Shown in pieces: positions 5,759-7,805 of a stretch of DNA of 48,024 nucleotides; the first letter of the stretch is position 1, and each line of letters starts with the position of its first letter. Both the position numbers and the translations under genes were made by a program. Origin of the DNA: a virus (Duplodnaviria; Caudoviricetes); IMG/VR virus record IMGVR_UViG_3300036802_000106, positions 1-48,024 of that record; one strand, 5' to 3'. The notes below the pieces were generated by a model. That model was not told where the DNA came from, did not search any database, and was given only the letters and a program-made list of their open reading frames with translations.

Positions 5759-7805
5759 TTACTTGAATTTATCTTTTTGACTTTCTAAAAGAATTTTTTC
5801 AAGTTCATCAGGACTATATTGATTAAATGTTTGGTTTATATTATGAAATCTAGTTTTAACAGTTGGAGTTTTAATTGTTTTACTTTGTTTATTATTAAGT
5901 TTATTTTCTAGTGTCTTTTTAAAATAGTTATAAGATTTAACCTTTATCTTTTCTTCATCATCTTTCTCTAAAGCTATTAAAATAGATTCTTGTAATATTT
6001 TTTTATATTCTTTTTCTTTAAAGTTATAATTACTAAAATCATTTATAAAATCTGCAAGTGTTTTTGTTGTGAATAATTTTTTATTTGGAACATAAAAATC
6101 ATCACTTTTATTTTTTTCTATATAGTTAGATTTATTAGAAGCTATCACCATATCTTTTTTTAGATTTAGCTCTATTTCAGTTTTATCGTTGACTGTTTCC
6201 GTTTTTGTCTCGCTTAACTTATCGAAGTAGACTCTTTTGTCTAAATCTTTAACTATAAAATCTATTGACTCAACTTTTCTTCCAACTTTATTTTCATTTA
6301 TATCTATATCAAAATATCCCGTATTATTAAGTTCTTTTATAGCTGGCTCTATAACTCGTCTTTTAAAGTCATTGTATCTATCGTATTTATCATCTAACAT
6401 TAAAAGTTCTTTAATTTCATCTATTTTATAATTTATTTTAGTCTTTGTACCACTCCATAGTCTTAATAAATATAGCAATAGGTAAGACTTAGAAATTATC
6501 TCCATCTTTTCCCCTGCTCCACACCGTACGTGAGACTTTCACCTCATACGGCGTTCCATCAATGCATATCTATTTTCTAAATTTCAAAATTTCCAAATAA
6601 TAATATACTAATATATATTATTATTTGCTATTAGTCGGTTAATTTACCAGTTATGGATTTCACCTCTTTTAGTCTTACGAGAACCTAATATACATTTTGA
6701 AATTTTGTTTTACTATATACAATGACTTGGGACTATCCCTCCACCACTTATTATCATGGTTTCATCGGTACTGTATCCCTACTCTCACTAGAATTAAGTA
6801 TGTTACCATACAATGTTTCATAGGTAGTAAAGCCTCCACATTCCTAGCTTTCCACGTTCCAATAATCCTATCTTTACATATAAACTTAGGTAGTTCCTAT
6901 GAGCCTGTTAACTGGATAGTGCCTATAACACTATAAGGTATTTCATATTTACGAATTTTACTTTACCTCGTTAACGTTAATATTTAACAGATATATTTCT
7001 ATATCTTAAGACTATAGACCCGTACATTCAGAACTTTGTCAGTATGCTTTGTTACATACATTCTTACCATATCTATTTTGTAGACCACCGACCTATCATA
7101 CACTCGACTGCCTCCAGTTCGCATTTCCTCTTAATCCTAGATTAAGTTAGGGTGTACTCTCAGCCGACTTCACCGAGCTTATGACCCATTCATATTCACC
7201 TATGAATACGCCATTCGGAGTATCATGGGAAACCCTTCGGGACGTTACTCCTTCATTTGATTTCTCGGATTATTAGTTCTTAGTTTAAGGTGTTTAAACT
7301 AGGCAATACTTTTCATATTGCAACGTGTCGCACCATAAAATCTTTGTGAGTATGAATTATTAAGAGATAGCCAAATTTGAACATTTATAGGTGTATATCC
7401 CATCTTTAAATATTCTTTTAATATATCATGAATTTTTTTAGATGCTTCTATATTAAACATCCCTAATTCGTCGTCGTAAGTATAACCATTTATAAAACCA
7501 TATGCTCCCCATAGATTACCTTTTTTGCTTTTTTTCTCTTCCTTGAAAAATATTGGTTTTTTTCTTAACTCCTCTAATACTTCTAGTATTCCTTTTACTG
7601 TGTTTTTTTCTTTAAACTTTATTATCTCTTTAAATTCTTTATGCGATATACTACATTTAAGTATTCCATCATTTTCTTTTTGCAATTTATATAACATAAA
7701 TAAAAATATTCTATTTTCAACTAAACTAAGATTATATCTCGCTTTTACTAAAATATTGTTTTTCATAAGAACTTTATCATTTTCTAATTGTTCCATAAAG
7801 TGCAT
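5759..7805 (-). CDS. repB: Rep_3/RepB plasmid replication initiator, two exons (7805-7334 and 6471-5759), 394 aa spliced
   Basis: N-terminal MKNNILVKARYNLSLVENRI; spliced junction YSQRFY-D-LLRLW is in frame; exon 2 has YNDFKRRVIEPAIKELN; iterons upstream. Confidence 0.92.
6472..7333 (-). mobile_element. ORF-less group II intron (862 nt, IIB-like)
   Basis: 5' GUGCG at 7333; domain V gaacgccgtatgaggtgaaagtctcacgtacggtgt; domain VI ending ...gctAT at 6472; removal restores the rep frame; candidate EBS1 CGUAAA (6953-6948) pairs with IBS1 UUUAUG. Confidence 0.93.

Follow-up and report, generated by a model that had tools for sequence, protein, structure and literature searches.

Our analysis of a 48,024-nt viral contig (the window) revealed an ORF-less group IIB intron inside rep, the replication initiator gene of what is likely a clostridial phage-plasmid. 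The intron is located on the minus strand at 7333-6472 and is 862 nt long. It starts with GUGCG (7333) and ends with AU (6473-6472). Sequence comparisons established its insertion and exact ends, a folded core, the pairings with the exons, the absence of an ORF, and intronless alleles. At the sequence level it is confirmed as an intact ORF-less group IIB ribozyme with class B marks, and its splicing is predicted. The kind of intron is known; its host gene, a replication initiator, is without a precedent that we found. We favor the reading, with a probability of about 0.55, that it is a tolerated mobile-intron remnant. It is likely spliced constitutively, probably without a cognate maturase (maturase-free or aided by host factors), and would not be an evolved switch.

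Insertion of the intron in rep

Removal of 7333-6472 in silico leaves a stop-free ORF of 394 codons containing the motif RFYDLLRLW, with the Asp codon created at the junction, as the original prediction had proposed. Thirteen 3’ ends (-6 to +6) were tried. Five leave the frame open, and solely the end at 6472 produces the D found in homologs. The spliced 394-aa Rep3 initiator aligns end to end with intronless Reps of the Paraclostridium/Romboutsia type at 73-76% identity (maximum 75.8%). The exon 1 product is 87.9% identical to the Rep of pRSJ16_1. Since exon 1 encodes Rep3_N and exon 2 encodes Rep3_C, full-length Rep requires splicing. Two minus-strand ORFs, of 168 aa (7805-7299) and 248 aa (6505-5759), had been put forward as possible products of unspliced RNA. 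Both are present.

Intronless alleles define the ends. An empty site was found in a 579-nt DNA contig of a different study (run X2), which fuses 6471 to 7334 exactly, without the 862 nt. It differs from the window at 2 positions in 268 nt of exon 1 and at 16 in 254 nt of exon 2. At two intronless loci (L121 and L123), the blastn alignment is interrupted at exactly 7334/6471. The boundaries called earlier from the sequence, GUGCG at 7333 and AU at 6472, are thus backed by both the empty site and the alignment breaks. Matches to Rfam RF02004 (group-II-D1D4-5; 7281-7077, 168.1 bits) and RF00029 (Intron_gpII; 6556-6472, 62.2 bits) are the only two gathering-level Rfam hits across the window. The G+C content is 35% in the intron and 22-24% in the exons.

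Table 1. Coordinates of the intron, its host gene and neighboring features in the window.
Feature	Position	Strand	Remarks
rep exon 1	7334..7805	-	157 codons + first base of Asp codon; WH1; 3’ end = IBS2/IBS1; Pfam Rep3_N E 1.8e-21
ORF-less group IIB intron	6472..7333	-	862 nt; longest stop-free sense stretch 44 codons
rep exon 2	5759..6471	-	WH2 + C-terminal extension; first base = IBS3; Pfam Rep3_C E 1.8e-19
Domain I	6853..7327	-	closing helices 7327-7322:6858-6853 and 7276-7267:6868-6859; covariation in 18-22 introns
Domain I motifs	AARC 7180-7177, EBS2 7012-7008, delta 6954, EBS1 6953-6948, delta’ 6900, EBS3 6899	-	
Candidate alpha-alpha’	7248-7243:6930-6925	-	domain I
Domain II	6787..6848	-	7-bp closing helix, 6 covarying pairs
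Gamma A and domain III	6729..6783	-	gamma A 6783; domain III 6779-6729
Domain IV without ORF	6558..6728	-	IVa stem ~6690-6627 + perfect A/T hairpin 6626-6595
Domain V	6521..6554	-	CGC triad 6553-6551, GAAA loop
Domain VI	6474..6518	-	unpaired A6479 = predicted branch point; contains ATG at 6505
Promoter-like site	7869-7841	-	9/12 match; overlaps last iteron
Six iterons, 21-22 bp	7868..7994	-	upstream of rep; same array in L006, L014
A/T-rich 10-bp repeats	8040..8074	.	adjoin iterons; also in L006, L014
Intrinsic terminator	5708..5734	-	behind rep; 1 found vs 0.4 expected
ParA	4207-5013	-	85% identical to Paraclostridium plasmid ParA
Small ParA partner gene	3829-4206	-	
Second replication module	11039..12562	+	DnaD-like initiator + DnaC-like loader
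Insertion sequence left end	47899..48024	+	right end = window 1-118

Ribozyme core and exon pairings

Relatives of the intron were gathered from plasmids, 112 genomes of the Romboutsia lituseburensis family, metagenomes and viral contigs. The covariation set contains 18 complete introns for the EBS/IBS pairings and up to 22 introns for the helices. We named the intron domains following the group II model (Table 1). Covarying helices (22 introns) trace domains I-III, and the fold z score of the intron is -5.5. Domain V carries the CGC triad and GAAA loop, and in domain VI A6479 is unpaired. These features, together with the RF00029 match, bear out the earlier description of both domains as intact. 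The sequence of domain V is identical to that of the RT-bearing relative L085. An alignment of 14 RT-bearing relatives has 190 invariant columns, and the intron keeps 183 of them; the leave-one-out range of the relatives themselves is 190/190 to 190/206. Three of the seven missed columns are gaps at a single spot.

The intron pairs extensively with its own exons. The EBS1 site was taken as the six bases preceding a conserved anchor, and its partner as the last six bases of the intron’s own 5’ exon. EBS1 (6953-6948) pairs with IBS1 at 6/6 positions, and 103/108 positions are paired over the 18 introns. The mean over 306 cross pairs is 2.66/6. The EBS1-IBS1 pair, previously considered plausible, therefore stands. 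EBS2 (7012-7008) forms 5 bp with IBS2. In 18/18 introns, the EBS3 column (6899) complements the base with which exon 2 starts. The gamma A6783 pairs with the last intron base in 18/18, with one compensatory change; column 7077 scored equally. The delta’ position (6900) also pairs in 18/18, G-U permitted, which is a weak test since delta (6954) is nearly invariant.

The fit of EBS1, EBS2 and EBS3 to these exons argues against an assembly chimera, in which an intron of another organism would be fused to rep, as only 1.3% of cross pairs attain a 6/6 EBS1 match. The depth is low (7.5-9) and the run’s contigs break in domain V, as might be expected of such an artifact. However, contigs of run X1, one over the 5’ junction and another over the 3’ junction, have 0 differences from the window, although X1 is possibly the source and thus not independent. 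We consider a chimera highly improbable.

The ends fitting GUGYG/AY, domains I-VI, the EBS1 and EBS2 pairings and the discrete insertion relative to an intronless allele identify a group II intron. Its AARC bulge reads AAGC (7180-7177), and this bulge is a criterion for subgroup IIB (PMC12350094). The EBS3-IBS3 pairing and the delta-delta’ pairing, the latter weak, are also those of IIB. Two hairpins between the first two helices of domain I constitute a double stem insertion near the intron start. A CGC triad and a double stem near the 5’ end are the marks of bacterial class B (PMC4024640); the class is read here from the ribozyme alone, in an intron without IEP. An ORF-less IIC intron was also considered. 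IIC introns are located behind terminators and have no EBS2, and this assignment is ruled out by the IIB marks, the presence of EBS2 and the intragenic site.

The probable phage-plasmid and its rep replicon

The contig encodes a terminase, portal, capsid, sheath, baseplate, tape measure and lysin, as well as ParA, LexA and a resolvase. A single insertion sequence, with inverted repeats of ~22 bp and a 3-bp TGA duplication, supplies both contig ends and disrupts the terminator hairpin of the lysin gene (-16.7 kcal/mol in the empty site). The matching ends, the duplication and the split terminator indicate that the molecule is very likely circular, and that the contig breaks there because of the insertion sequence. 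Virion genes, a replicon and partition genes on this probable circle make the element likely a clostridial phage-plasmid. Its host likely belongs to the Peptostreptococcaceae, because Rep and ParA are closest to those of Paraclostridium plasmids and Romboutsia-type genomes. The Paraclostridium phage-plasmid pRSJ16_1 (NZ_CP014149) is similar in having a 74% identical Rep, 21-bp iterons, ParA, LexA, DnaD/DnaC and a short integrase. Unlike the element here, it has an intronless rep and tail genes of another type.

A WH1+WH2 initiator, adjacent iterons and an A/T tract identify a Rep3 iteron replicon after in silico splicing. The Rep profile matches the F RepE structures 1REP and 2Z9O (E about 2e-14). 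The A/T-rich repeats are likely the unwinding region. The promoter scan found 19 sites versus 24.7 expected, no excess over chance. Tandem Rep3 gene pairs are found on Paraclostridium and Romboutsia replicons (L007, L015-L017 and L019), with up to seven Rep3 matches in one genome.

The intron is inserted near the WH1/WH2 border, in the conserved R-F-Y-D-L-L-R-x-W helix. All 38 distinct intronless rep sites match at least 9 of the 12 EBS pairs, and 21 match 11 or 12. Conservation indicates that the insertion site is simply the most conserved Rep3 motif.

The original prediction had overlooked the second replication module, which, by analogy, probably serves lytic replication. The dependence on Rep thus covers plasmid maintenance and not necessarily lytic growth. 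The DnaC-like loader (11865-12562, plus strand) shifts frame near 11955 compared to four homologs. This may be a real lesion or an assembly error, and hints that the element may be decaying.

The frameshift bears on the idea that no useful splicing occurs and that rep is dead. The element would then be a relic, doomed or helper-dependent, and kept by a co-resident Rep or by integration. The insertion sequence, a short tyrosine recombinase (21613-22329), the single occurrence of the intron-bearing rep and the many Rep3 matches in the family, up to seven per genome, are consistent with such a relic. However, neither exon contains a stop, and their identity to intact Reps is 73-76%. Despite a divergence of at least 23% between the ribozyme and the relatives closest to it, every pairing that was tested is preserved. 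The contig ends close into a circle, and circular pRSJ16_1 has a similar short integrase. A dead rep is thus quite improbable.

Additional genes were noted. A 408-aa cargo ORF (303-1529, minus strand) contains ricin-type lectin and Toxin_10 domains (Pfam), and its product is presumably a member of the Bin/Tpp-like pesticidal protein family. A MuF minor head protein (26675-28258, plus strand) has a C-terminal Ntox50 domain.

Absence of an RT, relatives and predicted splicing

The original prediction that the window encodes no RT or maturase held. One RT search of the contig gave 0 matches, tblastn with 11 related RTs reached a best E of 0.013, and the longest stop-free stretch in the intron is 44 codons. 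Lacking an RT/maturase ORF in domain IV, the intron is not an autonomous retroelement. A free-standing GIY-YIG nuclease gene (17449-18129, plus strand) is located 10 kb from the intron, with best plasmid matches of 31% over 75%. Its role as a homing helper of the intron is not supported.

The sequence ‘agaggtga’ (6667-6660) had been regarded as an orphan SD. It is present but is located in the retained domain IVa stem, directly behind the conserved IVa motif and ~30 nt ahead of the ancestral RT start position, now ATA. In the RT-bearing relatives L081, L089 and L106, a similar purine tract follows IVa, and a separate purine-rich ribosome site is located further downstream, just before the start. 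A run X5 contig end likewise has the purine tract and then a separate AGGAGA. The tract therefore belongs to IVa and is not an orphan SD.

Sequence comparisons indicate that loss of the ORF is recurrent in the intron lineage. The closest relatives compared are 71-77% alike to the intron. Among those without an ORF, the closest, 74% alike, is an 858-nt intron (L008, 5001-5858) on the C. baratii plasmid NZ_CP124308. It is located in the P-loop codons of a plasmid recA for which the record has no annotation; no RT match was found on this plasmid. Two IMG/VR contigs (L113 and L114) contain a 778-nt ORF-less intron in a phage tape-measure gene (4001-4778, minus strand). Its ORF loss is recent, because its ribozyme is very close to that of RT-bearing L081. 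Another ORF-less relative (L099) is found in tcpF of a C. perfringens plasmid. The ORF-less relatives L051 (genome G098, 768 nt) and L054 (genome G035, 753 nt) have lost domain IVa, which is retained here. We take their host genes, from the translations, to be those for an MgtC/SapB membrane protein and a UTP-glucose-1-phosphate uridylyltransferase, respectively. An RT search with one query gave no match in the incomplete genome G035, and a search of G098, also incomplete, gave one 35% match. L051 and L054 are candidates for maturase-free splicing. In a ribozyme tree of 26 rows, the ORF-less label requires 7 changes for 8 rows, and the shuffled mean is 7.0. Rows L096, L103, L110 and L111 are 5’ parts only, and L088 and L092 were left out as incomplete.

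Within the family, the intron in rep was found only here. The Rep profile matched 99 places in 40 of the 112 family genomes, and 81 of these cover the junction uninterrupted, without the intron. None of the 99 places ends at the junction. The five genomes with the closest Reps gave no intron match. Strong intron matches (E < 1e-10) are present in only 18/112 family genomes and, with one incomplete genome per species, in only 7 of the 40 with a Rep match. Junction patterns gave 7 hits in viral contigs, none linked to the intron or Rep by blastn or tblastn, and 0 hits in another scan. A domain IVa pattern gave 0 hits in viral contigs and was found in 3/401 order genomes (locus examined in G022). 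A metagenome pattern identified 13 loci, including 7 intron relatives, none beside a Rep.

Domain IVa is the usual maturase-binding region. Its retention is consistent with an obligatory trans maturase, encoded by a class B intron with an RT in the host genome; the plasmid state would then be limited to hosts carrying such an intron. RT-bearing class B-like introns were verified in 8/112 family genomes, and the nearest RT-bearing tree row, L111, groups with the intron at 99/95. Trans maturases have precedents in Thermosynechococcus (PMC2882425) and the B. cereus group (PMC2504315). They are also the usual case described, as bacterial ORF-less introns nearly always co-occur in a genome with a related IEP (PMC4424553). 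However, no sister at least 80% alike across domain I is seen in run X1, probably the source. There, one 1375-nt contig spans 6534-7908 at flank-like depth. At 80% likeness, 6560-7345 matches only four other short pieces, of at most 42 nt (~85% of the run, filtered contigs). The single contig at flank-like depth and the few intron matches in the family, strong in only 7/40 Rep-bearing genomes, argue against a close helper, and the closest relatives compared are just 71-77% alike. We therefore regard an obligatory trans maturase as possible but doubtful.

In the favored reading, that of a tolerated remnant, the R-F-Y-D-L-L-R-x-W helix, where EBS1, EBS2 and EBS3 match, would have been entered by a class B retroelement or by a copy that lacked the ORF and was mobilized by a sister RT. 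Either before or after this insertion, a deletion between IVa and the hairpin that trails it would have removed the RT ORF. The rep transcript would fold, EBS1/IBS1 and EBS2/IBS2 would set the 5’ site, and A6479 would branch. EBS3/IBS3 and gamma would set the 3’ site, and translation of the ligated mRNA would give a Rep of 394 aa for binding to the six iterons. An iteron initiator is required only in small amounts, so modest splicing should be sufficient. The ribozyme would remain under selection because Rep is needed. Reduced Rep output would be an expected side effect, as for Ll.LtrB. The relatives interrupt many unrelated genes, a parasite pattern that favors this reading. Retention of IVa, the single occurrence and the loader frameshift speak against it. 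Class B has a precedent in the ORF-less C.te.I1, for which in vivo splicing is documented in a genome lacking an IEP (PMC3919590).

The original prediction that prophage maintenance depends on splicing stands in part. Full-length Rep needs splicing, no maturase is on the element, and plasmid-prophage features are present. The suggested gating of copy number, host range or lysogeny is not supported. In such a regulated gate, unspliced RNA would encode the WH1-only 168-aa fragment, which could dimerize with Rep and damp it, tuning copy number or lysogeny by temperature or Mg2+. WH1 fragments can inhibit Rep, and the insertion is close to the WH1/WH2 border. Group II introns such as Ll.LtrB target spliced mRNA and lower host-gene output, and their splicing is cold-sensitive (PMC6003770, PMC7293003). 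Some effect on Rep level is thus expected without adaptation. The absence of the intron from 81/81 homologous sites, the near-identical intronless allele and the recurrent ORF loss argue against an evolved switch. The site is the most conserved motif, and the EBS match at 9 or more of 12 pairs is common to all 38 intronless sites. The start codon in domain VI is found at the homologous place in 10/22 introns, whose hosts are unrelated genes, and is thus no sign of a designed C-terminal product. A regulated gate is therefore unlikely.

An additional speculation is that the intron acts as a replicon licence, confining plasmid maintenance to hosts that supply a class B maturase. Alternatively, it could be a weapon. 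The EBS1, EBS2 and EBS3 of the excised lariat match the most conserved Peptostreptococcaceae Rep3 motif, with 11-12 of 12 pairs at 21/38 distinct intronless sites, and the lariat would attack rep mRNA made by other replicons, whether co-resident or incoming, in an RNA-based incompatibility. Both are improbable. Regulated splicing, or splicing directed against rival replicons, would be a new level at which plasmid copy number and incompatibility are controlled.

The tolerated remnant is similar to several described introns. One of them, 683 nt long, interrupts the minor tail gene of the c-st plasmid prophage (PMC12350094). It is also ORF-less and IIB, and is found in a conserved phage gene of a clostridial plasmid prophage. 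The ends of both are defined by intronless homologs, and the splicing of both is predicted. The c-st intron has an AGC triad instead of CGC, whereas the host gene here serves plasmid maintenance. C.te.I1 of C. tetani shares class B, the absent ORF, the CGC triad, the 5’ double stem and a replicon without IEP (PMC3919590, PMC4024640). The rep intron has canonical ends, a canonical EBS3-IBS3 pairing and domain IVa; in C.te.I1 the 5’ site is shifted, the 3’ exons are alternative, and the 3’ end is recognized in an IIA-like manner. In TeI3 of Thermosynechococcus elongatus, the ORF was also deleted from IVb, with IVa kept and a good EBS/IBS match (PMC2882425). TeI3 exists in multiple copies alongside near-identical RT sisters in its genome, whereas for the rep intron one copy and no close sister were found. 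Ll.LtrB in the pRS01 relaxase gene is likewise located in a gene needed by a mobile element, and its splicing limits expression (PMC6003770, PMC7293003). In contrast, it is IIA, encodes LtrA and interrupts a transfer gene, not a replication initiator.

ORF-less introns in essential phage genes have been published (PMC12350094). Table S1 of that study (Merk, Jones, Eddy 2025) gives 20 phage group II introns, six of them ORF-less. The host genes in that table encode RNA and DNA polymerase, terminase, tail, helicase, UvrX and ssb, with no replication initiator among them. Class B introns favor replication, recombination and repair neighborhoods on plasmids (PMC7306698). We found no report of a plasmid rep gene interrupted by a group II intron in the open-access literature, as represented by that Table S1, PMC2920175 and PMC7306698 among others. 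Table S2 of PMC12350094, with 12,909 rows of unannotated IMG/VR hits, may already list the Rfam hits of this contig.

With the rep intron, replication initiators join the host genes of phage group II introns. Intron-split rep genes get annotated as two pseudogene halves. The mechanism by which bacterial ORF-less group II introns splice without a maturase of their own is an open question (PMC3919590, PMC4424553). Plasmid survival would depend on splicing here, which would provide a genetic selection in screens for host factors or foreign maturases.

Metagenomes contain further traces of the intron family. A 151-nt contig of depth 2 in run X6, too thin as evidence, has an intron 5’ end with a similar IBS1 in a different exon. 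In run X5, an animal gut metagenome, relatives of 6560-7345 are ~80-93% alike in the listed pieces and reach depths in the thousands, which suggests a highly amplified intron family.
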